A DNA stretch of 64,000 bases, taken from the NCBI RefSeq assembly GCF_036365525.1, contig NC_090374.1:15169168-15233167 (forward strand), in the 5' to 3' direction. The notes below the pieces were generated by a model. That model saw nothing but the letters and a program-made list of their open reading frames with translations. It was not told the origin of the DNA and did not search any database. Origin of the DNA: Heterodontus francisci. Taxonomy: Eukaryota. This document shows positions 1,636 through 60,837 of this stretch, one piece after another. The stretch's first letter is position 1; each line of letters opens with the position of its first letter. Position numbers and translations under genes: made by a program.

Positions 1636-1697
1636 CTACCAGCCAGATTCATCCACGTATTGTAAAGTTAAACTGTATCAGCAGCAATCAACACCAG
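1636..1697 (+). CDS. Candidate cytoplasmic exon of a convergent gene, YQPDSSTYCKVKLYQQQSTP (ITIM-like SxYxxV)
   Basis: Long polypyrimidine tract ending cttag, donor CAG|gtatct; the reading frame is inferred. Confidence 0.5.
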
Positions 1698-11458: not shown

Positions 11459-11487
11459 CTTTCATCTTTTTTCCCGCCAACCCAACC

Positions 11488-21014: not shown

Positions 21015-21086
21015 TTGTCTATTCTGCTTGAGGTGCTTTGGGTTTGTTGACCGTGCTTTTGAGAGCACCTTCTACCTCCTGCGCAT
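21015..21086 (-). CDS. Cytoplasmic exon 4 DAQEVEGALKSTVNKPKAPQAE* (stop TAG at 21019-21021)
   Basis: Acceptor tatgtgtctttaaag; same D.QE....QAE pattern; 72 nt to a vestigial gtaaaa donor. Confidence 0.7.
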
Positions 21087-24000
21087 CTTTAAAGACACAT
21101 AGAGAAAATAACGATGAACCCAAATGTCCTCTGTTATTGACAATGTGCCCCATTGAATTGGTGATTGCACAACAAGCTAGATCCTAGTCAAGAGAATCCC
21201 ATTGTCCAATCAACTGAAAGGCCATTTAACACAACAGGAACAAACGTGCTCAGCAATTACTCTGCAAGGCTAAAGATTCAGGATTTTGCCTTTTTAAACT
21301 AAAAACCTTGGGAGATGGGCAAATATTTCTCTGGGATGTGATCCCTGCATTTTCACCAGGATCACTCCCATTAGGGAGTGATCACTGCCCCTGACCCCCA
21401 TCGTGTATGCAGGGTCAATGGGAAGTCATGTGAGTTCTCATGGACAAAGACGAGAGTGGTCCGAAAGGAAGAGTGCTAAATTGGGGGAAGGCCAACGATA
21501 CCAAAATTCGGCAGGAGCTGGGAAATGTAGATTGGGAGCAGCTGTTTGAAGGTAAATCCACATTTGATATGTGGTCGGCTTTTAAAGAGAGGTTGATTAG
21601 CGTGCAGGAGAGACATGTTCCTGTGAAAATGAGGGATAGAAATGGCAAGATTAGGGAACCATGGATGACAGGTGAAATTGTGAGACTAGCTAAGAGGAAA
21701 AAGGAAGCATACATAAGGTCTAGGCGGCTGATGAAAGACGAAGCTTTGAAAGAATATTGGGAATGTAGGACCAATCTGAAACGAGGAATTAAGAGGGCTA
21801 AAAGGGGTCATGAAATATCTTTAGCAAACAGGGTTAAGGAAAATCCCAAAGCCTTTTATTCATATATAAGGAGAAAGAGGGTAACTAGAGAAAGGATTGG
21901 CCCACTAAAGGACAAAGGAGGAATGTTATGCTTGGACTCAGAGAAAATGGGTGAGATTCTAAACGAGTACTTTGCATCGGTATTCACCGAGGAGAGGGAC
22001 ATGACGGATGTTGAGGTTAGGAACAGATGTTTGATTACTCTAGGTCAAGTCGGCATAAGGAGGGAGGAAGTGTTGGGTATTCTAAAGGGCATTAAGGTGG
22101 ACAAGTCCCCAGGTCCGGATGGGATCTATCCCAGGTTACTGAGGGAAGCGAGAGAGGAAATAGCTGGGGCCTTAACAGATATCTTTGCAGCATCCTTAAA
22201 CACGGGTGAGGTCCCGGAGGACTGGAGAATTGCTAATGATGTCCCCTTGTTTAAGAAGGGTAGCAGGGATAATCCAGGTAATTATAGACCGGTGAGCCTG
22301 ACGTCAGTGGTAGGGAAGCTGCTGGAGAAGATACTAAGGGATAGGATCTATTCTCATTTGGAAGAAAATGGGCTCATCAGTGATAGGCAACATGGTTTTG
22401 TGCAGGGAAGGTCATGTCTTACCAACTTAATAGAATTCTTTGAGGAAGTGACAAAGTTGATTGATGAGGGAAGGGCTGTCGATGTCATATACATGGACTT
22501 CAGTAAGGCGTTTGATAAGGTTCCCCATGGCAGGCTGATGGAGAAAGTGAAGGCGCTTGGGGTCCAAGGTGTACTAGCTAGATGGATAAAGAACTGGCTG
22601 GGCAACAGGAGACAGAGAGTAGCAGTAGAAGGGAGTTTCTCAAAATGGAGACGTGTGACCAGTGGTGTTCCACAGGGATCCGTGCTGGGACCACTGTTGT
22701 TTGTGATATACATTAATGATTTGGAGGAAAGTATAGGTGGACTGATTAGCAAGTTTGCAGACGACACTAAGATTGGTGGAGTAGCAGATAGTGAAGGGGA
22801 CTGTCAGAGAATACAGCAGAATATAGATAGACTGGAGAGTTGGGCAGAGAAATGGCAGATGGAGTTCAATCAGGGCAAATGCGAGGTGATGCATTTTGGA
22901 AGATCCAATTCAAGAGTGAACTATACAGTAAATGGAAAAGTCCTGGGGAAAATTGATGTCCAGAGAGATTTGGGTGTTCAGGTCCACTGTTCCCTGAAGG
23001 TGGCAACGCAGGTAAATAGAGTGGTCAAGAAGGCATACGGCATGCTTTCCTTCATCGGACGGGGCATTGAGTACAAGAGTTGGCAGGTCATGTTACAGTT
23101 GTATAGGACTTTGGTTCGGCCACATTTGGAATACTGCGTACAGTTCTGGTCGCCACATTATCAAAAGGATGTGGATGCTTTGGAGAGGGTGCAGAGGAGG
23201 TTCACCAGGATGTTGCCTGGTATGGAGGGCGCTAGCTATGAAGAGAGGTTGAGTAGATTAGGATTATTTTCATTAGAAAGACGGAGGTTGAGGGGGGACC
23301 TGATTGAGGTGTACAAAATCATGAGAGGTATAGACAGGGTGGATAGCAAGAGGCTTTTTCCCAGAGTGGGGGTTTCAATTACTAGAGGACACGAGTTCAA
23401 AGTGAAAGGGGAAAAGTTTAGGGGGGATATGCGTGGAAAGTTCTTTACGCAGAGGGTGGTGGGCACCTGGAACGCATTGCCAGCGGAGGTGGTAGATGCG
23501 GGCACGATGGAGTCTTTTAAGATGTATCTAGATAGATACATGAATGGGCAGGAAGAAAAGAGATACAGAACCTTAGAAAATAGGCGACATGTTTAGAGAG
23601 AGGATCTGGATCGGCGCAGGCTTGGAGGGCCGAAGGGCCTGTTCCTGTGCTGTAATTATCTTTGTTCTTCTTTGAGTTCCACATATTGCCACGATGGGCA
23701 ACCCTGACTGTCAATATTTAAAAGGTACTCCATCATGTCAGTTGTACTTATGTGAAAGGTTTACTCTTCAAATAAAGTAGAAATTATGGTTGGCTGCTAT
23801 CTGTTCACTGCTAGCTCTGGAGTCACCATTCCTTACCTGTCTCTGCTTGGTGGGGTCTTAGAATATTTACATTGCCGTGGAGAGAGACATGTTCAGATTC
23901 CTGTGGATCTGTAAAGGACACAGTCAGTTACTTTCTTCTTTCATCCTTATCTTCAAAGCCTTTCTACAATTTATTGGTTATAATAATGAATCCAACTTGC

Positions 24001-30000: not shown

Positions 30001-33000
30001 GTGGTGGTCTAGCATGACACTCTCGTCGGCTAGAATGCAGCCACGTTGTTCAGGGGATAGAATAAAGAACTGCAGCAACCTGGACTCCCGGAGGATAAAG
30101 GAGTTCTGGCATCGGCCAGGAAAGTGAATGCACACATGTCGGAGGCTTGTTGTGGTCGCAGACCAGCTGAATGTGCAGCGACTGGTACCCATTCCTGTTG
30201 ATGAATTTCCCTGGCCAATCGCTTGGCACATTGATGGCCACAAGGGTGGAATCAATGATGCCCTGCATCATTTGGGGAATCCAGCAATGGAGGCGAATCC
30301 CACTGGCCTTTGTGCCTGCAAGGCCTCATCTATTTGAAATTGTATGTACTGCCCAGGTCTCACAAATAGGGCAGCAGTGACCTGCTAGCTGCAATGGGTT
30401 GCATCTTGTGAGAGGCCGCTTGTGAGAGGCCACTAAAGTCCATTGCTAATCCTTGGAAGGAGCCAAAGGCGAGGTAATTCAAGGCCACAATGACTTTGGA
30501 AGCGACTGTCGGGCATGGAGAACAGTACTGCAAGGTGTGAGGTCTTCCTCAACGAGGGCACAAATCTCAGTGTTCATCTGCTTAGAGAGGCGCAGTCTCC
30601 TGGGGCCTTATGGCTGGAGCTCTATCTCTGTTCCTGAGGATGTCGATCCTCATTGCCACTCGACCCAATATCTGAGTACCTTAATCCCATGTCTACCTGT
30701 TGCCTTGCTCACGCTCAGCTGCACTCACCCACCCTCCTCTGATGACCCCATGATCCCTGGAGGGTCATGACCTTTTCCGCTGCCCAAGTGTGCTCAGACC
30801 ACTCGCTGTGCAACCTCTGCTCACCCGATGGCACCTGTGTGCCAGTGACTGAGTGACCCTCTTAGCCATGCACCCTTTTATTGGCCCAACTAATTGCATG
30901 GAGTGGCCATGACTGGCTCCTCATGACTGTGTGCTGCCTCATAGGAACATAAGAGCATAAGAAATAGGAGCAGGAGTAGGCCATTCAGCCCCTCAAGCCT
31001 GCTCTACCATTCAACTAGATCATGGCTGATCATCTACCTCAACATTACTTTCCTGCACTGTCCCCATGTCCCTTGATATATTTAACATCTAGAAATATAA
31101 TGATTTCTGTCTTGAAAAATAGGCTCAACATTTGAGCCTCCACAGCCCTCTGAGGTAGAGAATTCCACAGATTCACCACCCTCTGAGTGAAGAAATTCCT
31201 CCTCTTCTCAGTCCTAAATGTCCTATCTCTTATTCTGAGATTGTGTCTCCTGGTTCCAGGCCCCCAGCCAGAGGAAAAATCCTTCCTTCATCCACCCTGT
31301 CGAGCCCTGTAAGAATTTTGTAAGTTTCAATGAGATCACCTCTCATTCTTCTAAACTCTAGAGAATACAGGCCCAGTATCCTCAATCTCTCCTCATGGGA
31401 CAAACCCACCATCCCACGGAATAGTCTGGAGAACCTTCATTGCCCTCCCTCTATGGCAAGTATAGATAAGGAGATCAAAACAGTACACAATGCTCCAGGT
31501 GTGATCTCACCAAGGCTCTATACAATTGCAGCAAGACACCTTTAGTCCTGTACTCAAATCCTCTTGCAGTAAAGGCCATACCATTTCCCTTCCTAATTGC
31601 TTGCTGTACCGTATGTTAGCTTTCAGTGACTCATGAACAAGGACACCCAGGTCCTGAACAAGGACACCCAGGTCCTGAACAAGGACACCCAGGTCCTGAA
31701 CAAGGATACCCAGGCCTCTAAGCACATGGACTGTTGCTGATACAGCATTCAACCCGTGTGTCCCCACCAACGTTCCAAACTGGCTCTTGACAAGATGGCA
31801 ATAAGTTCATCAACAAGATTACTTGGCCACGTCTCCAAATTGGGCAGGTTGCCGGGGCCTGCCCTGAGGAAAGTGGCTGGCTGGTATGCCATCCGGCGGT
31901 GCCAATTTTCATGTCCGCCCATCTCCGCATGAGCCCCCATCAGGGCTGAAAAATCCTGCTCTCTGTTTCTCTCTCCACAGATGGTGCTAGACCTGCTGAG
32001 TATTTCCAGCAATTTCTATTTTTATTTAACATAACCTCTCTGCTTTTCTATTCTATCCCTCTAGAAACGAACCCCATTTCTTCGATAGTTTTTTAAAAAT
32101 AGTCTTACTAACCTGTGTTGCTACTTTTAGTGATCTGTGTCCCTTTACCCCTAGACCTTGCTGTTCCTTTATCCCATTTAGATGCTTATTTTCCAAGGAC
32201 GATGTGGCCTCAATAATCCTCCTACCAAAATGCACAACCTCACACTTATTTATGTTGAAGTTCGTTTGTCATTTGCACCCATTCTGCAAGTTTATTAATG
32301 CTTCGTTGTATTTTGCCGCAGTTCTCCTCTGTGTTAACTACACCTTCCAATTTGTCCACAAATTTTGAAATTGTAGTTCCAATTCCTACGTCCAAATTAA
32401 TTATGTAAACTGTGAATAAGAGTGGTCCCATCCGCAGTCCTTAACCACTGCGCTCTATTTTCTGTTTTGAAGTGGATTTACCTGTCTCTGCTTGCTGTAA
32501 TTTTGTAAAATTCACAACACTGTAAACAGGATTACTTTCAGCTCCCGGTGGATCTATCAAAGACAAAAATGGAAGAAAATATGGATTTTTTAAAATGGAG
32601 AAACACAGGTGAAATGACGACAATACTATCAAGGATGAAATAGTTGCAGAGAGAAGGAGGTAAATCACAAACTAATGATTGGGGATGCCAAACATGGCTT
32701 TTAAAAACCTTTAGCTTTTGAGTTTTAGCTGTGGCTCAGTGGATAGTGCTCTCACCGTCATGTCTGAAGATCATGGATTCAAATTCCATTCCAGATATTT
32801 GAGCACATAATCCAGACTGACACCCCTAAGTGCAATACTGAGGGAGTGCCGCCTTGTCAGAGGTGCCGTCCTTCAGATGAGACAAACTGAGGCTCCATCT
32901 GGTCTCTCAGTTAACAATCCCATGGCCACTTCTTTGAAGAAGAGCAGGGGTGTCCTCCCGGGTGCCCTGGCTAACATATATTTCTCAAACCTAAATTAGA

Positions 33001-36000: not shown

Positions 36001-39000
36001 TGTTAGGGAATATGGGATTAATGCAGGAGGGGATGTGGTAGGGAATATGGGATTAATGTAGGATTAGTTTAAATGGGTGGTTGATGGTCAGCACAGACTC
36101 GGTGGGCCGAAGGGCCTGTTTCAGTGCTGTATCTCTCTATGACTCTATGACTAAAATGGTGGGGGAGTGACGGTGAGAAAAAGAGAAAATCATATTGTGG
36201 GGAGACAAAACGCAGACTGGGTTTTCGCTTTGTGGAACGCCTCCACTCAGTCTGCAAGCATGACCCTGAGCTTCCAGTCGCCTGTCATTTTAATTCTCCA
36301 TGTGGCTCCCACTCTGACCTCTCTGTTCTCAACTGCCTGCAGTGTTCCAATGAAGCTCAATGTAAGCTCGGGGAACAGCGCCTCATCTTTCGATTATGCA
36401 CTTTACAGCCTTCCAGGCTCAACATTGAGTTCAATAATTTCAGACCGTAATCTCTGCCCCCATCTTGTTTCCTTTTCTTTGCTGAGTTTGGCTTTTCTCT
36501 CTTTTTTGTTTTCAGTCCATTATTCTGTCATTCTCCCCCGTCATATCTTTTGTTTCTTTACTTGTCTTTTCAGAGTCATGAGGGGTCTGGACAGAGTAGA
36601 TAGAGAGAAACTGTTCCCACTCATGAAAGGATCGAGAACGAGAGGGCACAGATTTAAAGTAATTGGTTAAGAGAAGCAAAAGTGACTTGAGGAAAAACTT
36701 TTTCACGTAGCGAGTGGTTAAAGTCAGGAATGCGCTGCCTGAGAATGTGGTGGAGACAGGTTCAATTGAAGCATTCAAAAGGGAATTAGACTGTTATAGG
36801 AAAAGGAAGAATGTGCAGGGTTACAGGGAGAAGGTGGGGGAATGGAACTGAGTGAATTGCTCTTTTGGAGAGCCGGTGCAGATACGATGGGCTGAATGGC
36901 CTCCCTCTGCACTGTAATGATTTTGTGATTCTGTTGTTCCATCACCACTCCATCTGGCCTTGCACCATTAAACCGTTTGTCGTTTGCTCTCTCCTGCCCT
37001 CCACCCTATCTCAGACCTTCCCTTTTGTTATTTTTCCCACCCTCCCCCATTTCACTTGCTTAAAACTGGTTACATTCCGAACGTTTACATTTCCAACTTT
37101 TCCCAGTTCTGATAAAAGGTCACTGACCTGAAACATTAACTCTGTTTCTCTCTCCACTCACAATGCCTGACCTGCTGAGCAGTTCCAGTATTTTCTGTTT
37201 TTACTTTGAGCTTAAGGTATGTACATCTAAGAATGTTCTCAGTGCAAAGCAGGGGTTTGTCTCATTACCTGTCTCTGCTTGCTGTGACACGGTATCATGA
37301 GCAACACTGTTGCTTCCAGCTTCCTGCTGATCTGTCAAAGACACAGAAACGTAAGAGAGTATTTCCATAGAAATTGACAGAAATGACCATCAGGCAGTCG
37401 GCTATATAATAGCAGGTGATCTGCTCCATCAGTTTACTTACTAAGGATTCCCCTCCCCACACCTCCCACCCAGACAAGATCTAACAAGCCAGCTATTGTG
37501 CTGTGCATGAAATTGTGCCCAGACGACTCTCCAATATCTCTGTGCTCCTCTAACTCTTGCACATCCCAGTATTCACCGCTCCACCATTGGTGGCTGTACC
37601 TTCAGCCTTTAGCGGGTACTTTAGACAAAATTAAACTGACGGACATAGACATACATGAGCTACAGTTTGCAGATGACTGCAGTGCCATTGTCCACTCTGC
37701 ACCAGGTTTGCAAGCCCTCTCAATCTCTTCAATTCTGCATACGAGAAACTCCTGGCCTTGAATGTCGCCAAAACAAAACTGATGTATTAACCCACACGAG
37801 GACCAATGGCAGAAACTCGTGACCCTGAGTAGACGTCATCCTCGAATCACGGGAATGCCGATGGACTAACAATCCAGACATCTGGACCAATGATTCAGAG
37901 ATGTGACCAGAAGTCCAACATCTCAACATCCCTTTCAGATTTTCCTGTCAGTGACTGGTCATGGAGAACTTCCCGCGTCCACATAGCAGGAAGGCAATTA
38001 AGGTATTAAAGAGCCCAACAGACAGCAATTTTACTCGTTGTGTCCGATTTAACTAATGGAGCACAGGAACCATGGAGCTTCACAGCCTCGCCTGGTGAAA
38101 GGTGGTGACAAATACTCAGAGGAGTGCAGTCATAGCCAAGTTTGTGGCACCACAGGTGGCTCAGTTGCACAGGAGGGGAGGAAGAAGAGTGGAAGAGCAG
38201 TCGAGATAGGGGATTAATTGGTTATAGGAGCAAACAGGCGTTTCTGCGGCTGTAGATGTGACTCCAGGATGGTGTGTTGTCTCCCTGGTGTCAGGGTCAA
38301 GGATGTCACGGAGCAGCTGCAGGACGTTCTTCAGAGGTTGTGGTCCACATTGGTACCAATGACATAGGAACAGGGATGAGGTCCTAATAGCAGATTTTAG
38401 GGAGCTAGGAAGGAGATGAAAAAGCAGGACCTCAAAAGTTGTAATCTCGGGATTACTCCCAGTCTCACATGCTAGTGAGCATAGGAATAGGAGAATTGAA
38501 CAATTGAACACATGGCTGGAGAACTGGTGTAGGAGGGAGGGCAAATGATTTCTGAGGCATTGGGTTGTTCCTGGGGCAGGTGGGACCTTTACAAGATGGA
38601 CAGGTTGTATCTTAGCAGGACTGGGACGAATATCCTTGCAGGGAGATTTGCTAGTGCTGTTGGGGAGGGTTCAAACTAGATTATTAGGGGGATGGGAACC
38701 TGAGAGGGAGCTCAGATTGGAGGGAATCAAAACTGGTAACAGGAAGTAGAACAGTAGTAAGTGAAATTAGAAGACAGCCAAAGCAAAGGCAAACATCAAT
38801 CGGATCAGAATGCAGAATCATGTTAAAAATGCAGAATTAAAGACACTCTACCTGAATGCACACAGCATTCACAACAATGTTGATGATTTGTCCACACAAA
38901 TTCAGGTAAATGGATATGATTTAATTGCCATTACAGAGACGTGACTACAGGCTGACCAAGATCGGTAACTTGGATATTCATCATTTAGGAAAGATAGGCA

Positions 39001-42000
39001 AAAAAAGAAAAGGAGGTGGAGTTAGCACTCTTAATAAGGGATGAGGTCAGTACATTAGTGAGAGAGGATCTTAGATCAAAGGATCAAGACGTGGAATCTG
39101 TTTGGGTGGAGCTAAGAAACAGCAAGGGGCAGCAAACATTGGTGGGATTTGTTTCTTGGCCAATAGTGGTAATGTGAAGCATGGTATTAATCAGGATATT
39201 AGAGAAGCCAAGCCAAAAAGACGTCCTGCCTATCACACAAATGAGTAATGTGATATATGAATTTCAATGCCAGTCTGATACTAGGTATATAGGCCGTACG
39301 TCCCAAAGACTGGCAGATCGTATCAAACAACATGTCCCTTCTGCTATTCGCAACGGGCAAGGTACAGGCCGTACCCAACCAGCCCGTGGTTGCAAAACTC
39401 AAAACACAGTTTCCAATATTATATGTGATTCTGCGATTGGACAATATTTGCTAAATAATCCTCAGTGTGCTAAGAATTACGATTTAAGATAGTCAGTAGG
39501 GCTCACAGTGTGATGCATTTGTGCCTACTGGAAGCTACATATATTAATACACAGGGCCCTGTTCTTTGCAGGCAGAAAGAACATGTACACACATTATGCC
39601 TGTTTCAGCTAAACAAAATAAGTGACAGCCATTTGCTGGTTCATTCCTTAGGACAATGCCTTGACCAATTAGAGTCAAGCTGCCTGGTTTAAATTTCAAA
39701 CAAAGCTTGGCAGTTAAACTGTCAGTCACCACAAACTGGTGCATTCTCCATGGCAATGCCTCCACCAATCTGATTCCACTTGCCAACCAATCAGCACTGT
39801 CTTCTCATACAGTATAAATTTGTTGCTTTCCCTTGCATGGGTATTCTGTGAATTGTCCTGATGAGTGCAAGATGAAAAGATTCGACAAAATGTCTCTGTT
39901 TTCAGAAATACTGAAATTAGTATTATTAATGAGGTAGTATTTGAAAAGTTAACCGGATTGAATGTTGATAAATCTCCTGGACCAAATGAGCTACATCCCA
40001 GAGTATTGAAGGAGGTGGTTATAGGGATAGTGGATGCATTGGTGGTTATCTTTCAAACTTCTATAGATTCTGGCAAGGTTCCTGTAGACTAAAAAGTAGC
40101 AAATGTAACCCCACTTTTTAAGAAGGGAGGGAGAGGGAGAATGGAGAACTACAGACCTGTTAGTTTGACATCAGTAGTGGGGAAAACGTAAGAATCTATT
40201 ATAAAGGATGTGATAACTGGACACTTGGAAAATAACGGTAAAATTGTGCAGAGTTAACATGGATTTATGAAAGGGAAATCATGTTGGACAAACCTGTTGG
40301 AGGATTTTGAGGATGTAACTGGCAGAATAGATAAGGGGAAATTGGTGTATTTGAATTTGCAGAAGGCTGGATGGGAAGCTTTGGCAGGCCAGAGTCTGGT
40401 CCGCGGGTCATATGTTGGACAACCCTGGTCTTATTTAATTAAAGGGTGATCTAATTGAGGTGGTCAAGGTGATTAAAGGAGTTGATAGGGTAGATAGAGA
40501 GAAACTATGTCCTCTGGTGGGGGAGTCCAGAACAAGGGGACATAACCTTAAAAGTAGTGTTAGGCCATTCAAGGGTGATGTCAGGAAGCATCTCTTCACA
40601 CAAAGAGTCATGATAATCTGGAATTCTCCCCGAAAAGCTGTTGAGACTGGGGAGTCAAATAGAAGTTTAAAAACTGAGATCTTTGTTAGGCAACGGTATT
40701 AGGGTTAAGATACAGATCAGCCATGTTCTAACTGAATGACAGAACAGGTTCAAGGGGCTGAATGGCCTCCTCCTGTTATGAAAACTAGAAGATGTCAGAA
40801 TATTACTATGATGTTGCCACACCAGTCGAGTTTTTATTGTGAAGCTTACCTCTCTTCAACCACCAGATAGTAAAACAAATTAAAAGAAAGAAGATAATTA
40901 AAATGGCAGGCCAAATGTAGAGAACAATATTCAACTTGTCCTTTTCATCAGCGGAGAAGTGGATTTGACAGACGTCTCTCCCGTGTTCATTTACAGCCAC
41001 ACAGCTGTAGGTCCCTCTCAGTGTTGGGTTAAGAAACTCTCCTACAGTTTGATGTTTGTCCGGCACTCGTGTGACTGTTGCACTGTTGCTGTCCTCAGTC
41101 AATGTGTTGTTTTCAGGGTCAATCCATGTGATGTTGGCAGGTGGCTCCCCTTCAACCCTGCACATGATGGTGTCTCCACTTATATTATCATTCACAGCTG
41201 ACAGTTCCAGGATGGTGGCTGGGGCTTGGGCAAGAAAGTTACAATGAGTTAACTCAGACTAACAGATATTGGCATTACGATTGCTGAATTCCCCACCATC
41301 AACATCATGGGGGTTACCATTGACCAGAAATTGAATTGGACCAGCCATATAAATGGCTCTTGTGGCTACAAGAGCAGGTCAGAGACTGAGAATTCTGCTG
41401 TGAGTAACTCACCTCCTGACTCCCCAAAGCCTGTCCACCATCTACAAGGCACAAGTCAGGAGTGTGATGGAATATTCTCCACTTGCCTGAATGGGTGCAG
41501 CTGCAACAACACTCAAGAAGCTCGACACCATCCAGGATAAAGCAGCCCGCTTGATTGGCACCCCATCCACCACCTTCAACATTCACTCCCTTCACACAAT
41601 GGCAGCAGTGTGCACCATCTACAAGATGCACTGCAGCAACGCACCAAGGCTCCTTAGACAGCACCTTCCAAACCCGCAACCTCTACCACCTAGAAGGACA
41701 AGGGCAGCAAATGCATGGGAATACCCCCACCTGCAAGTTCCCCTCCAAGTCACACACCATCCTGACTTGGAACTATATCGTCGTTCCTTCACTGTCGCTG
41801 GGTCAAAATCCTGGAACTCCCTTCCTAACAGCACTGCGGATATATCTACCCCACATGGACTGCAGCGGTTTAAGGAGGCAGCTCACCACCACCTTAATAA
41901 ATGCTGGCCTAGCCAGCGACGCCCACATCCCATGAATGAATAAATTTTTTTTTATAGGAACATAGGAGCAGGAGTTGGCCACTTAGCCACCCGAGCCTGT

Positions 42001-45000
42001 TCTTCCGTTCAATGAGATCAGGGCTGATCCGTGACCTGAATCTATACACCCACCTTTGCCCCATATTCCATAATAATTTTCGTTCACAAAAATCCATCAG
42101 TCCCAGTTTCGAAATTAACAATTGATTCAGCATCAATTGTCATTTGTGGAAGAGTTCCAGACTTCTACCGCCCTTTGTGTGTAGAAGTGTTTCCTAATTT
42201 CACTCCTGAAAGGACTGGCTCTAATGTTTAGACTATATCCCCAAGTCCTGGACTCCCCAACCAGAAAAAATAGTTTTTTTCTCTCTCTACCTTATCTGTT
42301 CCCCTGAATCGTTTGAAAACTTTGAACAAATCACCCCTTAACCTTCTAAATAAAACCCTAGTTTGTGCAATCTCTCCCTGTAATTTAACCCTTGGAGTCC
42401 AGGTATCATTCTGGTAAATCTATGTGGCACTCCCTCCAAGACCAGTATATTCTTCCTAAGGTGTGGTGCCCAGAATTGTTCACTGTACTCCAGGTGTGGT
42501 CTAACCAGGGCTTTGTATAGCTGAAACATGACTTCTACCCCTTTGTATTCCATTCCTCTAACATAAAGGCCAGAATTCCATTAGCCTTCTTGATTATTTG
42601 CTGGACCTGTTCATGACATTTTAATGATCTATGAACCTGGCCCCCCAAGTCACTATGGATCACCACTGTTTCTAACCTTTAACCTTGAACCAATATTAAA
42701 GGTGCATGGTGGCAAGATCCATTATGTGACACTGAGAAGCACATGCGCAGAGAGAGGTGGCAGCTAACATCCAGAGATTGAATTGTAATGTTTAGTGAGG
42801 GAATGGATTGACTCCTGATAAACGGGGACATGGGTTTGATGTTAATGGAACAGACGAATGGAATTAGCCTGAGAGAGTCTGTGGCCTAGAGAATGGATCC
42901 TCTAAACGGCCTCCTAAGCTCCGATATGGTGGACAGGAAGTGCTGCTCAACCTGAGCTGGAAAGACACCTCCCGCCCTGTTGGTCAAGGCCAATAATTCA
43001 GTGCACATTGTCCACAGATAGAAATAGCACTAAAGGGTCAGTGGAAGCCAGGGTTCATGAATTGGAACTACAGTGGTTTAGGTCTGTCTCAAGTCTCAGC
43101 TCATCCCTGGGATTGAATTTGCTCTTCTGTTTGTTCAACATGTTTTATCATTTACCCCACATTGTTGACATTGACGTTTCCTTACCGACAACCTGTAGTT
43201 TTATCCCATCCTGCGTCACATTTTCCCCTCCCCCATTCTTGACGTGTACATGACAGAAGTAGTCACTGGAGTCATTCAGCTGCAGGTCCTTCATCCGTAT
43301 GGAGGCATTGCCTTGGGTTAGGTTTCCGATCAGTTCATACCGATTGTCTTCATTTACAGTAGCTAGGTCAGTATAGTAAGAACCAGGACTGCGGGTATGA
43401 GTGTGATTAAAAACAGTGAACTCTTTGTGTGGATTCTCCTTCATCCAGAGGACAGTGATGGAGGTCACATTCAAGTCAGGGAGATTGAAGGTGCAGGACA
43501 ATAGAACATAGAACATACAGCACAGAACAGGCCCTTCGGCCCACAATGTTGTGCCGATCCTTTGTCCTCTGTCAAGGACAATTTAATCTATACCCCATCA
43601 TTCTCCTTTATCCATATACCTATCCAAAAGCCTTTTGAAAGTCCCTAAAGTTTCTGACTCAACAACTTCCCCGGGCAAGGCATTCCATGCCTCGACCACT
43701 CTCTGGGTAAAGAACCTTCCCCTGACATCCCCCTTATATCTCCCACCCTTCACCTTAAATTTATGACCCCTTGTAACGCTTTGCTCCACCCGGGGAAAAA
43801 GTTTCTGACTGTCTACCCTATCTATTCCCCTGATCATCTTATAAACCTCTATCATGTCACCCCTCATCCTTCTCCTTTCTAATGAGAAGAGGCCTAGAAT
43901 GTTCAGCCTTTCCTCGTAAGACTTATTCTCCATTCCAGGCAACATCCTGGTAAATCTCCTCTGCACCCTCTCCAAGGCTTCCACATCCTTCCTAAAATGA
44001 GGCGACCAGAACTGCACACAGTACTCCAAATGAGGCCTTACCAAGGTCCTGTACAGCTGCATCATCACCTCACGGCTCTTAAATTCAATCCCTCTGCTAA
44101 TGAACGCTAACACCCCATATGCCTTCTTCACAGCCCTATCCACTTGAGTTGCAACTTTCAATGATCTATGCACATAGACCCCAAGGTCTCTCTGCTCCTC
44201 CACATGCCCAAGAACCCTACCGTTAACCCAGTATTTTGCATTCATGTTTGTCCTTCCAAAATGGACGACCTCACACTTTTCAGGGTTAAACTCCATCTGC
44301 CACTTTTCAGCCCAGCACTGCAACCTATCCAAGTCCCCCTGCAGACGACAATAGCCCTCCTCGGTATCCACAACTCCACCAACCTTTGTATCATCTGCAA
44401 ATTTACTGACCCACCCTTCGACTTCCTCATCCAAGTCGTTAATAAAAATCACAAACAGGAGAGGACCCAGAACTGATCCCTGCGGCACGCCACTGGTAAC
44501 TGGGCTCCAGGCTGAGTATTTACCATCTAAGACCACTCTCTGCCTTCTATCAGTTAGCCAATTCTTAATCCAACTGGCCACATTCCCCACTATCCCATGC
44601 CTCCTGACTTTCTCCATAAGTCTACCATGGGGGACCTTATCAAATGCCTTACTAAAATCCATGTACACCACATCCACTGGTTTACCCTCATCCACTTGCT
44701 TGGTCACCTGCTCAAAGAATTCAATCAGGCTTGTGAGGCAAGACCTACCCCTCACAAAACCGTGCTGACTGTCCCGAATCAAGCAGTGTCTTTCCAGATG
44801 CTCAGAAATCCTATCCCTCAGCACCTTTTCCATCAACTTGCCTACCACCGAAGTAAGACTAACTGGCCTGTAATTCCCAGGGTTGTTCCTATTCCCTTTC
44901 TTGAACAGGGGCACAACATTTGCCACCCTCCAATCACCTGGTACCACCCCCGTCAGCAGAGAAGATGAAAAGATCATTGCCAGCGGCTCTGCAATTTCAT

Positions 45001-48000
45001 CCCTTGCTTCCCATAACATCCTTGGATATACCCCGTCAGGCCCGGGAGACTTGTCTATCTTCAAGTTATTCAAAAACCCCAACACATCTTCCCTCCTAAC
45101 GAGCACTTCCTCGAGCTTACCAGTCTGTTTCACACCGTCCTCTTCAGTAATACACCCCTTCTCATTCGTAAATACCGAAGAGAAGTACTCATTCAAAACC
45201 TCACTTATCTCTTCCGGCTCAACACACAGTCTCCCGCTATTGTCCTTGACCGGACCTATGGTCCCCCTGGTCATCCTCATATTTCTGACATACGCGTAAA
45301 AGGCCTTGGGGTTTTCTTTTATCCTACCCGCCAAGCATTTTTCATGCCCTCTCTTAGCTCTCCTAATCCCTTTCTTCAGATCCTTCCTGGCCATCTTGTA
45401 TCCCTCCAGAGCTATGCCTGTGCCCTTTTTCCTCAACTTTATATACGCATCCTTCTTCTTCCTAACAAGACTCTCAACCTCTCTTGTCAACCACGGTTCC
45501 CTCACATGACCATCCCTTCCCTGTCTGACAGGGACATGCTTATCAATGGCCCCTACTATCTGCTCCTTGAAAAAGTTCCACATTTCGACCGTGCCCTTCC
45601 CTGCCAGCATATGCTCCCAACTTATGCTCCTCAGTTCCTGCCTGACAGCATCATATCTACCCTTCCCCCAATTGTAAACCTTGCCCTGTTGCACATACCT
45701 ATCCCTCTCCATTACCACAGTGAATGCTACAGAATTGTGATCACTATCTCCAAAGTGCTCGCCCACCAACAGCTCTATCACTTGCCCTGGTTCATTACCT
45801 AGTACCAAATCCAATATTGCCTCCCCTCTGGTCGGGCAGTCTACATACTGAGTCAGAAAAGCTTCCTGGACATACTGCACAAACACTACCCCATCCAAAC
45901 TATTCGATCTAAAGAGTTGCCAATCAATATTTGGGAAGTTGAAATCCCCCATAATTACTACCCTGTGACTTCTGCTCCTTTCCAATGTGGCAGAATCTCC
46001 CTTCTTCCCAATCACTGGCCACATATTGTTCTTATTAGCTGAGGATAGAGAAGGGTTCCAAAGAAAGTACATTATTCTTTCGGGCAATTACATTGAATAG
46101 AGTTTATACAATGTATATCTTCCTGTGCACTGTGAGCTTATCTCTGATGGCAGTGCAGGAACACAACAGCAACCTGCTGTAATGTAATGAAACATCCCAA
46201 AAGCAGCATTATCAGACAAAACTTCACACTGAGTCACATAAGGAGATCTTCAGACAGGTCAAAGCTTGGTTAAAGTGGTAGGTTTTAAGGAGTGTCTTAA
46301 AAGAGGAGAGAGAGGTAGGTGGAGAAATGAGGAAGGGAATTCCAGAGTTTAGGCCTAGCCGGTTGAAGGTGAAAAGCAAATGTGTCGCGCAGGCAGCTTT
46401 TGGACACCGTTTGAGCTTGGACATAGACAGCTCATCTCTTAGCCACGTACTGGGCAGCAGTGTACCTCCCTCACGCTCGGCCTCTACACACCGTCCCCTC
46501 AGAGCAGGCAGGGCCCCAGACTGATTAACAAAGGTGGGAGTGAAAATCTTATACATTTCCTTTTCAAGTATTTATCCAATTCCCATCTGGAAGTTACGAT
46601 CGAATCTGCTTCCACCGCCCTTTCAGGCAGCACATTCCAGATCACAACAACTAGCTGCGTAAAATAAAACTCATCTGTCTGTTTATCTCAAATTAACTCA
46701 AACCTGTGTCCTCCGGTTCCGGTTACCAACCCTCCTGTCCATGGGAACAGTTTCTCTAGATTTACTCTATTAGAACTCTTCATAGTGTTAAACAGCTCTA
46801 CTAATTCTCATCCCTGCCATTCTAGTAAATCTCCTCCGCACTCTCTCCAAGTCCTTTACATCCTTTCTAAAGTGTGTTGCCCAGAATTTCACACATAATA
46901 ACTTCCTTTTGTTCTCTAAACCTCCAGTAATAAAGCCAAGAATCCCTTATACTTTTTAACAGTGTTATCAAGTTGTCCTGCCACCTTCTATTGTTTGTTT
47001 ATGTGAAGCCCCGGCTCTGTATCTCTCCATCCCCTTTAAAATTGCACCATTTAGTTTATATTGCTTCTCCTCATTCTGCCTTCCAAAAATAAAAAATCAC
47101 TTCATCCTTTCTCACAACAAGCCAGCCCATGAAACATTGGAAGATCTTCCTCTTTGAAAAGACTTCCTCTTGTTCCAGTGAAGTAGAGCCCATGACTGAA
47201 TGCAGAGGATCTTTTTCAATGTGAGACCTGACGAATTCCGGATCAAAATCAGACCTGATAACAACATGGACATTCCAGAAACATTTTGAGGTCTAACACC
47301 TCCAATGCAGGAGCATGGTTTGTGACTGGACAGACAGTGATTTAATGATTGTGTTGCAGGTTTAGTAATCTAAAGGCCTGGGTAAATAATTCTGTAAGTG
47401 TAAGTTCAAATCTCCCCATAGACATACAAACTTACCAATTCAGTTAGGAAAAAACTAAAATGCTGGCATCAGTAAAATGACCCATGAAGGTGTTGGATTT
47501 TTGTTTTTAAAAACAAAAACCAACTGTTCACTAATGTTCAGCTTGGCCTGGTCTAGATGTGATTTCACTTCCACCATCTCTGAAGGGTGATGAGGCATTG
47601 CCAGTGATGCCCACAAACCAAGAAGCAATTCTTAAAAACATACATGTATGTGCTCCAGTTGCTTCACAGCTCAATCTTATATCGAGTTTGAATTATTCCT
47701 TACCTATCATCTTGACAACTCCAAGCTCATGTTCAAATTTTGCTTTCTTTCTGTCTTTGGGATTCACACGACAAATATATTTGTTAATTGTGTCCTCTTT
47801 CCTCAGCTTTTTGATGATCATGGAAGCATTGTTCTCTCTCGGGTTCCCCGTCGCTTGGTAACTCTTGTTAATATTCTGGTGGATCAGATTCTGAAACCCA
47901 TGGTTCTGCGAGTTTGGAGATGGATAATTTGTGTAATTAAAAATCGCTTTTGCATTTCCATCTTTCCACGTGACGGTGATGTTACCTTTATATCCAGGGT

Positions 48001-51000
48001 GAGGGTGAGTGAACTTGCAGAACAGGACCACAGGCTTCCCTTCCCTACCCGTCACCCTATCAGGGGTCTCCATGGTCCAGCCATGTTTACTGAGACCTGT
48101 GAGGACACATAGATTTCGTGTCAACCCTTAACTGAGGACAACAGTCAAACACAGCACAGACGAACCACAAAACATCCTGTTTGTCTAATGTCTTTCTGAT
48201 CTTCTTTGGCCTCCTTATCTCGAGAGACCATGGGTAAGCGCCCGGAGGTGGTCAGTGGTGTGTGGAGCAGCGCCTGGAGTGGCTATAAAGGCCAATTCTA
48301 GAGTGACAGGCTCTTCCACAGGTGCTGCAGAAAAATTTGATTGTCGGGGCTGTTACACAGTTGGCTCTTCCCTTGCACCTCTGTCTTTTTTCCTGCCAAC
48401 TGCTAAGTCTCTTCGACTCGCCACTCTTTAGCCCCGCCTTTATGGCTGTCCGCCAGCTCTGGCGAACGCTGGCAACTGACTCCCACAACTTGTGATCAAT
48501 GTCACAGGATTTCATGTCGTGTTTGCAGACATCTTTAAAGCGGAGACATGGACGGCTGATGGGTCTGATACCAGTGGCGAGCTCGCTGTACAATGTGTCT
48601 TTGGGGATCCTGCCATCTTCCATGCGGCTCACATGGCCAAGCTATCTCAAGCGCCGCTGACTCAGTAGTCTGTATAAGCTGGGGATGTTGGCCGTCTCGA
48701 GGACTTCTGTGTTGGAGATACGGTCCTGCCACCTGATGCCAAGTATTCTCCGGAGGCAGCAAAGATGGAATGAATTGAGACGTCGCTCTTGGCTGACATA
48801 CGTTGTCCAGGCCTCGCTGCCATAGAGCAAGGTACTGAGGACACAGGCTTGATACACTCGGACTTTTGTGTTCCGTGTCAGTGCGCCATTTTCCCACACT
48901 CTCTTGGCCAGTCTGGACATAGCAGTGGAAGCCTTTCCCATGCGCTTGTTGATTTCTGCATCTAGAGACAGATTACTGGTGATAGTTGAGCCTAGGTAGG
49001 TGAACTCTTGAACCACTTCCAGAGCGAGGTCGCCAATGTTGATGGATGGAGCATTTCTGACATCCTGCCCCATGATGTTCATTTTCTTGAGGCTGATGGT
49101 TAGGCCAAATTCATTGCAGGCAGCCGCAAACCTGTTGATGAGACTGTGCAGGCACTCTTCAGTGTGAGATGTTAAAGCAGCATCGTCAGCAAAGAGGAAC
49201 AAAGAACAAAGAACAAAGAAAATTACAGCACAGGAACAGGCCCTTCAGCCCTCCAAGCCTGCGCCGATCCAGATCCTCTATCTAAACATGTCGCCTATTT
49301 TCTGAGGGTCTGTATCTCTTTGCTTCCTGCCCATTCATGTATCTGTCTAGATACATCTTAAAAGACGCTATCGTGCCCGCGTCTACCACCCCCGCTGGCA
49401 ACGCATTCCAGGCACCCACCACCCTCTGTGTAAAGAACTATCCACGCATATCCCCCCTAAACTTTTCCCCTCTCACTTTGAACTCGTGACCCCTAGTAAT
49501 TGAATCCCCCACTCTGGGAAAAAGCTTCTTGCTATCCACCCTGTCTATACCTCTCATGATTTTGTACACCTCAATCAGGTCCCCCCTCAACCTCCGTCTT
49601 TCTAATGAAAATAATCCTAATCTGCTCAACCTCTCTTCATAGCTAGCGCCCTCCATACCAGGCAACATCCTGGTGAACCTCCTCTGCACCCTCTCCAAAG
49701 CATCTACATCCTTTTGGTAATGTGGCGACCAGAACTGCACGCAGTATTCCAAATGTGGCCAAACCAAAGTCCTATACAACTGTAACATGACCTGCCAACT
49801 CTTGTACTCAATACCCCGTCCGATGAAGGAAAGCATGCCGTATGCCTTCTTGACCACTCTATTGACCTGCGTTGCCACCTTCAGGGAACAATGGACCTGA
49901 ACACCCAAATCTCTCTGTACATCAATTTTCCCCAGGACTTTTCCACTTACTGTATAGTTCACTCTTGAATTGGATCTTCCAAAATGCATCACCTCGCATT
50001 TGCCCTGATTGAACTCCATCTGCCATTTCTCTGCCCAACTCTCCAATCTATCTATATTCTGCTGTATTCTCTGACAGTCCCCTTCACTATCTGCTACTCC
50101 ACCAATCTTAGTGTCGTCTGCATCAGGAGTTCCCTGATGAGGACTTTCCATACTTTGGACTTCGCTCTTAGACGGGCAAGGTTGAACAACCTGCCCCCTG
50201 ATCTTGTGTGGAGGAAAATTCCTTCTTCCGAGGACTTGAACGCATGTGAAAGCAGCAGGGAGAAGAAAATCCCAAAAAGTGTGGGTGTTTCACACCACTC
50301 AGGATAGGAAAGGGGTCTGATGAGGAGCCACCATGTTGAATTGTGCCTTTCATATTGTCATGGAATGAGGTGATGATACTTAGTAGCTTTGGTGGGCATC
50401 CAATCTTTTCTAGTAGTCTGAAGAGGCCACGTCTGCTGACGAGGTCAAAGGCTTTGGTGAGATCAATGAAAGCAATGTAGAGGGGCATCTGTTGTTCACG
50501 GCATTTCTCCTGTATCTGACGAAGGGAAAACAGCATGTCAACGGTCGATCTCTCTGCACGAAAACCACACTGTGCCTCAGGGTAGACGCGCTCGGCCAGC
50601 TTCTGGAGCCTGTTTAAAGCGACTCAAGCAAAGACTTTCCCCACTATGCTGAGCAGGGAGATTCCACGGTAGTTGTTGCAGTCACCGCGGTCACCTTTGT
50701 TTTTATAGAGGGTGATGATCTTGGCATCGCGCATGTCCTGGGGTACTGCTCACTCGTCCCAGCACAGGCATAGCAGTTCATGTAGTGCTGAGAGTATAGC
50801 AGGCTTGGCACTCTTGATTATTTCAGGGGTAATGCTGTCCTTCCCAGGGGCTTTTCCGCTGGCTAGAGAATCAATGGCATCACTGAGTTCCGATTTTGTT
50901 GGCTGTATACTGTGCTGAATTATGAGCAGTTGTGTGTTGTGTGTTCACGCTCAGTGGGAAATGGGTTGGAGTGCATCCATCTCACTGGACCAAGAGGAAC

Positions 51001-60000: not shown

Positions 60001-60837
60001 CTACTGCATATCCAAGTGTGATGGTTTCTGCCTTTACCACCCTTTCCGGCAGTGAATTCCAGACTTCCACCAGCTTCTGGATGAAAACAATTTACTCCTC
60101 AACTCACCTCTAATCCTTCCACCAATTTAAATCTGCATCCTTTGGTTGTTGACCTCTCTGCTAAGGGAAATAGGTCCTTCCTATTCACTCTATCGAGGCT
60201 CCTTTTAAGGTTATACACCTCAATTAAATTTTCCCTCAGCCTCCTCTGTTCCAAAGAAAACAACCCCAGCCTTTCTTCATAGCTAAAATTCCCCAGTCCT
60301 GACAACATCCTCGAAAACTTTTTCTGCACCCTCTCTAGTGCAATCACACCCTTCAAGTAATGCAGCGACCAGAACTGTCCGCAGTGCTCCAGCTTCAGTC
60401 TAACTAGTGTTTTACACTGTTCTAGCATAAACCCCCTTCTTTCATACTCTATGCCTCAGTTAACGAAGCAAATGATCCCATAAGCCTTCTTAGCCACTTT
60501 ATGTACCTGTCCTGCCATCATTGTAATCTCTCATGTTTCAAATTACTATTATTTATAAAGAAAGTTAAACCAAGCACACACACGAGCACAAAAACACACA
60601 CACGTTTAAGTATAAAGTACTTTTTTCCACTGGTAGGACAATTCTTGCCTCTATATCAGTACAATATTCAGTATAATACAAAGGAACCACGTCTTCTCAG
60701 TCTGCAGTGAGACCCAGTTCTTTCCTACACAGTAAAAGATTGTAACAGACAGAAAACAGACTCCAGTTTCTCACTGGAGAATACGCACGTTCTGCTGAGC
60801 CGGCCAGTGTGAGTGCACAAAACAAGATGCACAACAT
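21015..60837 (-). CDS. Siglec-15-like Ig-superfamily type I membrane receptor gene (leader, micro-exon, V1, V2 interrupted by CR1, C2+TM, four cytoplasmic exons)
   Basis: Collinear minus-strand exons with AG/GT boundaries; all internal exons are phase 1-1 and multiples of 3 nt. V1 and C2 motifs resemble mammalian Siglec-15 (CTFTHPH, GNP, YFCRV, EGEPP) as recalled. Orthology is not established, so no symbol is given. Confidence 0.8.
21438..23672 (+). mobile_element. Young 5'-truncated CR1 with uninterrupted 718-aa ORF2
   Basis: ORF 21440-23596 with KFADD; 7-bp TSD tgagttc at 21431-21437 and 23673-23679. Confidence 0.96.
23837..23908 (-). CDS. Cytoplasmic exon 3 DPQESEHVSLHGNVNILRPHQAET
   Basis: Acceptor tgtgtcctttacag, donor ACAG|gtaagg, 72 nt, paralogous to exons 1 and 2. 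Confidence 0.78.
24381..24416 (-). ncRNA. Minimal type I hammerhead ribozyme
   Basis: UUGUU CUGAUGA GUGCAAGAC GAAA AGCU UC GACAA. Confidence 0.75.
25446..25481 (+). ncRNA. Minimal type I hammerhead ribozyme
   Basis: UUGUC CUGAUGA GUGCAAGAU GAAA AGCU UC GACAA, with perfect stem I and palindromic stem III. Confidence 0.78.
26615..27035 (+). mobile_element. tRNA-derived SINE whose 3' end matches the LINE at 5090-5150
   Basis: A and B boxes; tail gggcaattagggatgggcaataaatgctggcc is shared with that LINE. Confidence 0.75.
29113..30019. mobile_element. Solo LTR (~907 bp) inside the Harbinger transposase
   Basis: TGTTATG...CATGACA ends, TSD ccct/ctct; removing it restores A-D-E-G-Y. Confidence 0.82.
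30941..31717 (-). mobile_element. CR1 3' fragment with a 4x21-bp tandem at its 5' end
   Basis: YSLEFRRMRGDLIE; tgaacaaggacacccaggtcc repeated at 31634-31717. Confidence 0.88.
32482..32553 (-). CDS. Cytoplasmic exon 2 DPPGAESNPVYSVVNFTKLQQAET (YxxV tyrosine motif)
   Basis: Acceptor ttttgtctttgatag, donor ACAG|gtaaat, 72 nt. Confidence 0.8.
32728..33150 (+). mobile_element. Deu-domain-type SINE (SacSINE1/AmnSINE-like)
   Basis: tRNA-like head gtggctcagtgg, core gagggagtgc..gtcagaggtgccgtc.ttcagatgagac, L2-like tail ctatataaatgcaag. Confidence 0.65.
33393..34275 (-). mobile_element. CR1 3' fragment
   Basis: FNAEKCEVIHF, RDLGV, YCVQFW. Confidence 0.88.
34480..35190 (+). mobile_element. Penelope-like element 3' end (second family)
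   Basis: LLQCSSEHQRKLEEQHLIFRLGTLQPAGLNIEFNNF followed by a pLTR-type tail. Confidence 0.75.
35465..35767 (+). mobile_element. CR1 3' fragment nearly identical to 53800-54100
   Basis: Direct sequence comparison. Confidence 0.92.
36190..37205 (+). mobile_element. Penelope-like GIY-YIG 3' end interrupted by a CR1 fragment (36573-36930)
   Basis: GET.RRLG.RF.E...PVACHFNS..LNIEFNNF. Confidence 0.75.
37269..37331 (-). CDS. Cytoplasmic exon 1 DQQEAGSNSVAHDTVSQQAET
   Basis: Acceptor tctgtgtctttgacag, donor ACAG|gtaatg, 63 nt. Confidence 0.75.
39204..39912 (+). mobile_element. Penelope-like element 3' part (same family as 24370-25502)
   Basis: NVIYEFQCQSDTRYIGRTSQRL. Confidence 0.88.
39853..39888 (+). 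ncRNA. Minimal hammerhead ribozyme, stem III palindrome mutated
   Basis: UUGUC CUGAUGA GUGCAAGAU GAAA AGAU UC GACAA. Confidence 0.65.
40850..41224 (-). CDS. Ig C2-set domain plus transmembrane exon
   Basis: Acceptor ttcttgcccaag, donor G|gtaagc, 375 nt. CRVEGEPPANITW..GTYSCVAVNEHG followed by uncharged TM IVLYIWPAILIIFFLLICFTIWWL and KR. Confidence 0.9.
41268..41945 (+). mobile_element. 3' fragment of the LINE family at 5090-8790
   Basis: GVTIDQKLNWTSHIN, LDTIQDKAARLIG. Confidence 0.88.
41955..42690 (-). mobile_element. CR1 3' fragment
   Basis: LVRPHLEYSEQFW. Confidence 0.85.
43186..43498 (-). CDS. Ig V-set exon 2, 3' part SCTFN..W..DYFCHVH..KLQVV
   Basis: Joins the 5' part to give a 369-nt open exon (SATL-SCTF); donor G|gtaagg. 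Confidence 0.9.
43503..45982 (-). mobile_element. Young CR1 with 794 open codons of ORF2 (partial EN plus complete RT) inside Ig V2 exon
   Basis: GDFN, SDH, GVPQGSVLGP, KFADD; (TATGTTC)n tail; TSD caat at 43499-43502 and 45983-45986. Confidence 0.97.
45983..46038 (-). CDS. Ig V-set exon 2, 5' part (A)NKNNMWPVIGKKGDSATL
   Basis: Acceptor cttctctatcctcag; V-set A'/B strand pattern G..GDSATL; ends at the CR1 insertion junction (ATTG duplication). Confidence 0.85.
47704..48096 (-). CDS. Ig V-set exon 1, Siglec-15-like, F-strand Arg retained (YICRV)
   Basis: Acceptor tgtgtcctcacag, donor G|gtaagg, 393 nt. Translation includes WTMETPDRV..VLFCKFTHPH..W..GNPRENNASMII..YICRVN. Confidence 0.9.
48200..50912 (-). 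mobile_element. RTE-clade LINE, RT region, interrupted by a CR1
   Basis: FIDLTKAFD, FADDAAL, C-terminal C2H2 motif. Confidence 0.92.
49199..50122 (-). mobile_element. CR1 3' fragment, same subfamily as 21438-23672
   Basis: Near-identical protein from ADDTKIGG onward; (TTCTTTG)n tail. Confidence 0.94.
51737..51769 (-). CDS. Candidate 33-nt linker micro-exon (R)KVQWRGNNEI
   Basis: Acceptor tttatttcttttgggctgcag, donor G|gtgtct (weak), phase 1-1, open frame between leader and V1. Confidence 0.45.
   Translation of the reverse strand, partial: GKCSGVEIMR
52088..54112 (+). mobile_element. Young 5'-truncated CR1 with open ORF2, inserted in a SINE (52020-54350)
   Basis: ORF open to 54033; TSD aact at 52084-52087 and 54113-54116; (TTCTAA)n tail. 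Confidence 0.95.
56112..56452 (-). mobile_element. HE1-like SINE
   Basis: Reverse complement of the SINE at 11488. Confidence 0.88.
57090..57693 (-). mobile_element. RTE-clade 3' fragment
   Basis: Near-identical to the 11751 and 48200 copies. Confidence 0.92.
59190..59912. mobile_element. GC-rich MITE inserted in a CR1 3' tail (CR1 spans ~59150-60520, minus)
   Basis: Ends ggtcagagttttcc and ggaaatttctgcc; CR1 tail sequence resumes after it. Confidence 0.55.
60789..60837 (-). CDS. Candidate signal-peptide exon MLCILFCALTLAGSAE
   Basis: ATG in AAAATG context, hydrophobic 16-aa leader, phase-1 donor C|gtgcgt. Confidence 0.65.

Follow-up and report, generated by a model that had tools for sequence, protein, structure and literature searches.

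A Siglec-15-related V-V-C2 receptor gene of the horn shark, likely the inhibitory half of a receptor pair and split by a LINE in the sequenced allele

A stretch of 64,000 nucleotides (nt) from Heterodontus francisci, the horn shark (NC_090374.1, positions 15,169,168 to 15,233,167; locus G000:C4:15.17-15.23 Mb, hereafter the window), carries a gene for a receptor with three immunoglobulin (Ig) domains, V1-V2-C2. We read it, with a probability of about 70%, as a member of a shark Siglec-15-like cluster and likely the inhibitory partner in a pair of receptors, expected to recognize sialylated glycans by an arginine in V1 and to signal through a terminal immunoreceptor tyrosine-based inhibitory motif (ITIM). 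The window allele is split by a long interspersed nuclear element (LINE). A first-pass annotation had proposed a lineage-specific, possibly inhibitory Siglec-15-related receptor with two V domains, an uncharged transmembrane (TM) segment and a YSVV motif in its tail, lying between positions 21015 and 60837.

All motifs named in that annotation lie on the minus strand of the window. Eight exons make up the gene, which begins with an ATG at 60837 and closes with a stop codon at 15050; every junction is in phase 1 (Table 1). When the V2 exon is read without the LINE insert, the exons form one open frame of 479 codons with all splice sites present and 62.9% identity over 480 columns to the Heptranchias protein P0002. 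The proposed start held, a spliced contig confirming the donor after 60789, and the V1 motifs CKFTHPH (48019) and YICRV (47779, with the arginine), the V2 motif YFCHV (43261, with histidine in its place) and YSVV (32524) were present as described, as was a TM segment free of charge (within 40850-40945). The ectodomain has three domains and not two, because a third Ig domain is encoded in the TM exon. Pfam assigns the three Ig exons to V-set, V-set and Ig_3/I-set, both families of the last scoring over the cut-off (Ig_3 E 2.8e-7, I-set E 1.2e-6). The layout of signal peptide, V, V, C2/I-set and TM is that of a type I membrane Siglec, in which C2 follows V, with an atypical second V. An arginine-bearing V1 beside an arginine-less V2 spacer is correct as to residues, but V2 is not intact in the window copy. 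The 3' end had been set too early: the exon at 21015 holds a TAG and is skipped in RefSeq, and the last coding exon is 15096-15050. Two tail exons (37331-37269 and 23908-23837) and the sister gene described below had been missed. The RefSeq model of the gene (P0090, XP_067884866.1) matches the 3' piece of V2, the C2-TM exon and four tail exons letter for letter. It begins at an internal methionine downstream of the LINE, lacks the signal peptide and V1, and is misnamed CXADR-like.

By sequence match, fold and a reciprocal query, V1 has its nearest kin in Siglec-15, ahead of other Siglecs, PILR and the rest of the Ig superfamily. In the PDB, the V1 sequence matches Siglec-15 best (E 2.8e-11; next CD33, 9e-5), and the best 30 of 42 matches to a bird Siglec-15 query fall in the cluster on contigs C4 and C2279. 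The structure model of V1 (predicted local distance difference test 89.7) has its best fold match in the Siglec-15 entry 7ZOZ (Z 18.9, root mean square deviation 1.6 over 120 residues; next entry Z 14.2), and Foldseek gives the same ranking (E 1.7e-9 vs 1.1e-6 for the next). The arginine and aromatic residues of Siglecs are in place, with tryptophan, arginine and phenylalanine of V1 aligning with W44, R143 and Y154 of Siglec-15; V2 has histidine at the arginine position. The cysteine directly before the arginine and the B-F disulfide (C64-C142) are also kept. A tree was built from 71 V domains, without the additional repeats of two multi-V proteins. In it the 64 Siglec-15-like rows separated from hagfish rows, one pIgR/PILR-like domain and three shark domains of sialoadhesin/MAG/CD22-like type. 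V1 did not group with non-Siglec families, and a spliced contig joins exon 1 to V2, against an assignment of the exons to different genes. The kinship claimed at first pass is supported. Judged by its sequence, the gene belongs to the Siglec-15 lineage but is not Siglec-15 proper, because it departs from it in domain number (three, not V + C2), TM lysine and second disulfide. RefSeq names many members of the group Siglec-15, including uncharged-TM proteins of lungfish, coelacanth and caecilians. Four such proteins (P0087, P0097, P0119 and P0208; lungfish, coelacanth and caecilian) are Siglec-15-like with several V domains and/or an uncharged TM, one having an ITIM, which suggests that lobe-finned lineages, too, have retained variants of this kind.

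The cytoplasmic tail is assembled from related exons of 63-72 nt. The ITIM consensus is given as [IVLS]xYxx[LV] in the available text of PMC7226832. VIYATV in the last exon satisfies it, and PVYSVV, with proline at -2, is not canonical, nor is PVYSII of Heptranchias. The tail motif of the first-pass annotation is therefore present in a spliced 72-nt exon but fails as a signalling motif. A second YSVV at 33304 was rejected as a tail motif since it falls in an intron of the model. A similar terminal stretch, IYA[ATV]V, occurs in Heptranchias, Narcine, Mobula and Callorhinchus, and a canonical ITIM is found in three of nine other uncharged-TM proteins with a credible tail (Heptranchias, Narcine and Callorhinchus). 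The uncharged TM and the terminal VIYATV make an inhibitory role likely. Orthologues of the window gene were found in Heptranchias, Pristis, Narcine, Mobula and Callorhinchus, so the gene is lineage-specific only at the level of cartilaginous fishes.

The sister gene, encoding P0004, lies on the opposite strand about 106 kb to the left, measured C2 to C2 (G000:C4:15095546-15103566). Its product is also V-V-C2, with leucine in place of the V1 arginine, a TM lysine and a tail of few residues. The two have the features of paired receptors: they are linked and alike in their ectodomains, and one carries an ITIM whereas the other has a charged TM and a short tail. Both receptor types, uncharged-TM and TM-lysine, occur in sharks, rays and chimaera. 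Arginine together with an aromatic residue 11 positions on, as in tetrapod Siglec-15, is present in four of five uncharged-TM elasmobranch V1s, and leucine stands in place of the arginine in seven of eight elasmobranch TM-lysine V1s. V2 has histidine at this position in 12 of the 14 rows printed. Callorhinchus has both types, with V1s 90-92% alike and arginine in both; the pair is therefore older than the elasmobranchs and the V1 asymmetry later.

Patterns of identity between the two genes differ sharply by exon. At the nucleotide level V2 and C2 are 91.9% and 97.9% identical, V1 is 74.8% and the TM part 61% identical, and four stretches of flanking intron reach about 55%. Plain conservation of V2 and C2 is ruled out because synonymous difference is also low there (0.044 and 0.047) against 0.31 in V1 and 0.74 in TM. 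In trees from an alignment of 37 rows (a 48-row version misplaced V+C2 proteins and was dropped), the window gene and its sister pair in V2 (99/98) and C2 (100/98), while the TM-lysine V1s of sharks and rays group together (92/96). Approximately unbiased tests rejected a TM-lysine clade for V2 (P = 3e-6) and C2 (P = 1e-10), and a clade of window gene and sister for V1 (P = 0.004). These comparisons indicate that V2 and C2 are shared through exon-limited gene conversion from which V1 is excluded. Concerted evolution, a criterion for paired receptors, was accordingly found for V2 and C2 only. In the excerpt available of PMC5701461, the converted tract of primate SIGLEC11/16 includes the sialic-acid-binding exon; the pattern here is the reverse.

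In the window, V2 is split at 45983/43498 by 2480 nt of a 5'-truncated LINE (endonuclease end and reverse transcriptase; RVT_1 E 4e-36) with an ATTG target duplication. The element has the hallmarks of a CR1-type LINE: a 5'-truncated ORF2, a short repeat tail, a target duplication and an empty site in the sister gene, which carries an uninterrupted V2. The family label is assigned from the reverse transcriptase motifs and the tail, not from a repeat library. Out of 186 candidate places 40 were scored, the window copy among them, and all 40 agree over 1001 nt with 100% identity; the insertion is therefore very recent. The family has at least 39 other 100%-identical 1-kb copies in the assembly, on 20 or more large contigs; it is probably active now, to judge by this identity, and likely a rich source of insertion polymorphisms.

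Both forms of the V2 site were found in the reads of one sample. A contig from run X1 crosses the empty site with the letters of the window gene and not those of the sister, and one from run X4 passes into the LINE. A third contig (502 nt, from run X7, which is presumed to be RNA) connects exon 1 directly with the V2 acceptor, a jump of 14.7 kb, and goes on across the empty site, so the intact allele is spliced. A heterozygous LINE insertion is the simplest reading of the two forms. Over 40500-48500, repeats dominated the read contigs and no splice joint was seen. If read through, the inserted allele would follow the LINE frame to a stop at codon 961 and would lack a TM; the window allele is likely non-functional. 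Skipping of the whole V2 exon on this allele would keep the frame and would give V1-C2-TM-ITIM. In-frame rescue through cryptic sites was considered; by crude scoring, the strongest acceptor of the LINE tail (43568) fits the phase of neither the V1 donor nor the one donor found near the 5' junction.

The receptor would work much as other Siglecs do. V1 would bind sialylated self glycans through its arginine (by analogy with Siglec biology as covered in the available parts of PMC6941304, PMC6288428 and PMC13358205), the phosphorylated ITIM would recruit SHP-1/2, and the sister would couple to DAP12/DAP10 through its TM lysine. Known Siglec biology suggests expression on leukocytes.

Several observations weigh against this reading. 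Sialic-acid binding and inhibitory signalling of the window gene are predictions by analogy, and a cloned zebrafish Siglec-15 showed no strong binding of the glycans tested, according to the accessible text of PMC7226832. V1 has two cysteines only and so lacks the C95-C104 disulfide of Siglec-15, which is kept in the V-V subfamily of the cluster and in tetrapod, lungfish and most coelacanth rows. The domain phylogeny suggested at first pass did separate Siglec-15-like rows from outgroups, but with weak support (81/78) and no resolved order of subfamilies, and its outgroups were shark and hagfish proxies, not mammalian CD22, MAG, CD33 or PILR. SLC14A1 (a urea transporter), EPG5 and ATP5F1A are neighbours of mammalian SIGLEC15. 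Urea transporters lie at C1:85.3-85.6 Mb and an ATP5F1A-like gene at C1:45.2 Mb, the markers themselves being 40 Mb apart, and the cluster is on C4; the bird Siglec-15 query found no better match on C1 than in the cluster. The V1 of Mobula birostris lacks the arginine, and TM-lysine V1s of Mustelus and Callorhinchus keep it. No adaptor was located by a search for the DAP10 family, whose one weak match (E 0.21) contains an internal stop. In the tail, two tyrosine motifs kept by Heptranchias are lost in the horn shark copy (to histidine and lysine), and linkage of the last exon rests on the RefSeq model and homology rather than RNA. Five of the nine relatives have no canonical ITIM in their last 160 residues, several of these models looking incomplete, and a sixth (Rhinoraja P0254) has a tail unlike the family's. 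The X7 contig, the only spliced one seen, skips V1 (in frame), and each allele is represented by one contig from a sample that is possibly the source of the assembly.

Some of these points would suit an ancient inhibitory receptor turning into a pseudogene in the horn shark, where the LINE is tolerated as the gene no longer matters. Besides the two lost tyrosines and the lack of V1 in the sole spliced contig, there is a TAG in one tail exon (21086-21015; the Heptranchias orthologue has glutamine there, and its ITSM tyrosine is missing from the horn shark exon), the LINE sits in a coding exon and the long introns are full of repeats. We consider decay unlikely: the empty allele is unbroken and spliced, with 479 codons, all splice sites and a terminal ITIM, V1 keeps its tryptophan, arginine and phenylalanine, the insertion is extremely young, and null alleles are common in working paired Siglecs, as stated in the available text of PMC6288428. 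That the two forms reflect a second, unassembled gene copy or a cell-mosaic insertion, and not the other chromosome, is highly improbable. The cluster is prone to duplication (13 V-V paralogues, six on an unplaced contig) and each junction is in one contig only, but the assembly holds a single copy of the window gene's V1, V2 and C2, contig depth in run X1 shows no excess (10.1 on V1, 4.7-6.8 on V2/C2 pieces), and over 308 nt the empty-site contig has the same sequence as the window.

A different objection concerns the ligand. The receptor might derive from Siglec-15 and bind a protein, not sialic acid, or be an adhesion molecule as the RefSeq name implies, its arginine being structural or left over. 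The best PDB match of V2 is JAML/CD276, one transcript skips V1, sister V1s manage without the arginine, and conversion keeps V2-C2 matched and not V1. We think this improbable, because the CXADR-like name derives from a model without V1, fold comparison singles out Siglec-15, and arginine and aromatic residue are kept together in four of five elasmobranch orthologues and lost together in most sisters. The preferred reading remains that of a probably inhibitory receptor of the Siglec-15 lineage that is predicted to bind sialic acid.

This receptor and its sister may form a pair with inverted logic, an idea we hold tentatively and consider rather doubtful. Cartilaginous fishes would have their own paired-Siglec system derived from Siglec-15, in which the brake alone would sense host sialic acid, by V1, and the sister would have dropped its arginine so that self cannot trigger it. 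Conversion would keep V2-C2 identical as the surface grabbed by a microbial or other protein ligand, and V1 skipping and the segregating LINE null would tune the brake. Such a pair would predate the divergence of chimaeras from the shark and ray lineage, and the ancestor of jawed vertebrates may already have had ITIM-type Siglec-15 relatives.

Table 1. Exons and inserted element of the Siglec-15-related gene, in window positions
Feature	Position	Strand	Remarks
Exon 1, signal peptide	60789..60837	-	Phase-1 donor GTGCGT, shown by the spliced X7 contig; matches the Heptranchias N-terminus
Exon 2, V1	47704..48096	-	F-strand arginine 47770-47768 after cysteine; A-strand tryptophan and G-strand phenylalanine kept; no C-C' cysteine pair
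V2 exon, 5' piece, 56 nt	45983..46038	-	Terminates in first ATTG copy
CR1-type LINE, 5'-truncated, in the gene's orientation	43503..45982	-	ORF2 fragment in frame with V2; stop 43598; second ATTG copy 43502-43499
V2 exon, 3' piece, 313 nt	43186..43498	-	Histidine replaces arginine
C2/I-set domain and uncharged TM helix, single exon	40850..41224	-	Pfam Ig_3/I-set
Tail exon a, without tyrosine	37269..37331	-	Exon in RefSeq-matched model
Tail exon b, 72 nt, PVYSVV (non-canonical tyrosine motif)	32482..32553	-	Spliced exon
Tail exon c	23837..23908	-	Histidine where Heptranchias has the ITIM tyrosine
Degenerate 72-nt tail exon	21015..21086	-	In-frame TAG 21021-21019; lysine at the Heptranchias ITSM (immunoreceptor tyrosine-based switch motif) tyrosine; skipped in RefSeq model
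Last coding exon, canonical ITIM VIYATV and stop	15050..15096	-	RefSeq model and homology

The pair sits in a larger neighbourhood of related genes. A V-C2 gene with the arginine and an uncharged TM lies between the window gene and the sister, and its tail enters the window. Its V and C2-TM exons are at G000:C4:15161895-15168445 and a tail exon is at window 1636-1697 on the plus strand, where STYCKV fits the ITIM consensus; the last exon was not located. This gene is conserved in Carcharodon, Cetorhinus, skates, Mobula and Callorhinchus. Further left (G000:C4:13.4-14.9 Mb) and on the unplaced contig C2279 are 13 V-V genes (L003-L017), seven on C4 and six on C2279, which are >85% alike in V1, keep the Siglec-15 cysteine pair there and have both TM-lysine and ITIM tails in RefSeq. 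The C2279 copies are possibly in part the other haplotype, and one (C2279:170056) has a TAG in V1. TM and tail exons of this subfamily were not found by the open reading frame (ORF) scan and were taken from RefSeq proteins. Among its 62 shark and ray proteins, isoforms counted separately, 18 have a TM lysine and lack an ITIM. The TM is uncharged in a further 28, of which 21 show an ITIM-like motif, and the remaining 16 have no clear TM. To the right of the window, an isolated V1-exon fragment of the window gene's own subfamily (L016, G000:C4:15234876-15235082; 78% nt identity, with a short inverted piece) looks like a rearranged remnant, and a unique-ORF scan of the 200 kb on this side named no neighbour gene. 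Within the window, further long LINE reverse transcriptase frames lie in the gene's introns (21434-23596, 52012-54033 and others), and a GC-rich tandem repeat array with strong strand skew occupies 9977-11500.

We searched the literature and found no description of a shark Siglec-15-like receptor family or of such pairs, though subscription papers or supplements may mention them; in the available parts of PMC13262535 and PMC8455134, Siglecs are mentioned in passing only. The accessible text of PMC7226832 describes Siglec-15 as a conserved activating Siglec with a TM lysine, and fish as lacking CD33-type inhibitory Siglecs. Since sharks, rays and chimaera have an expanded Siglec-15-like group that includes ITIM and TM-lysine members, inhibitory sialic-acid sensing may have arisen independently from the Siglec-15 branch. 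Paired Siglecs and LINE null alleles are already known; new is a Siglec-15-derived pair in which conversion spares the binding domain. The domains kept alike (V2 and C2), as against the one diverging (V1), point to where a shared ligand binds. The gene also illustrates that a heterozygous young LINE in a reference assembly can truncate and misname a gene.

Human Siglec-15 (7ZOZ; as described in the available text of PMC10264397 and PMC6941304) shares with the window gene the V-set fold, the FTHPH B-C loop, the strand-F cysteine-arginine and the B-F disulfide. Also common to both are the A-strand tryptophan, the G-strand aromatic residue and one C2-type domain before the TM. The TM lysine of Siglec-15 is present in the sister and absent from the window gene, which differs further in its extra arginine-less V, its lack of the C95-C104 pair and its repeated short tail exons ending in an ITIM. 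Siglec-15 is a single conserved gene, whereas the window gene is one of 10 or more that are clustered on C4. PILR-alpha/beta are likewise ITIM/TM-lysine paired receptors with a Siglec-like V, but V1 fits them much more poorly (Z 13.2 vs 18.9) and the shark has a separate pIgR/PILR-like V family on C48. There, three tandem V exons with YCRV (G000:C48:7.47-7.49 Mb; L065 and L066) have PILR-alpha/beta as best single-domain PDB matches (E 2.5e-19), a possible shark PILR-like cluster. The closest parallels in organization are Siglec-11/16 and Siglec-5/14, for which the available portions of PMC5701461, PMC6288428 and PMC13358205 describe, as in the shark pair, an ITIM receptor beside a TM-charged sister, gene conversion and segregating null alleles. 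According to these sources, conversion in the primate pairs takes in the V exon and keeps ligand preference similar, and most null alleles affect the activating gene. In the shark pair, conversion covers V2 and C2 and leaves out V1 in elasmobranchs, and it is the ITIM gene that has the broken allele. The shark TM-lysine sister is usually without the arginine, unlike the primate pairs, and the primate pairs are CD33-related whereas the shark pair is Siglec-15-related.

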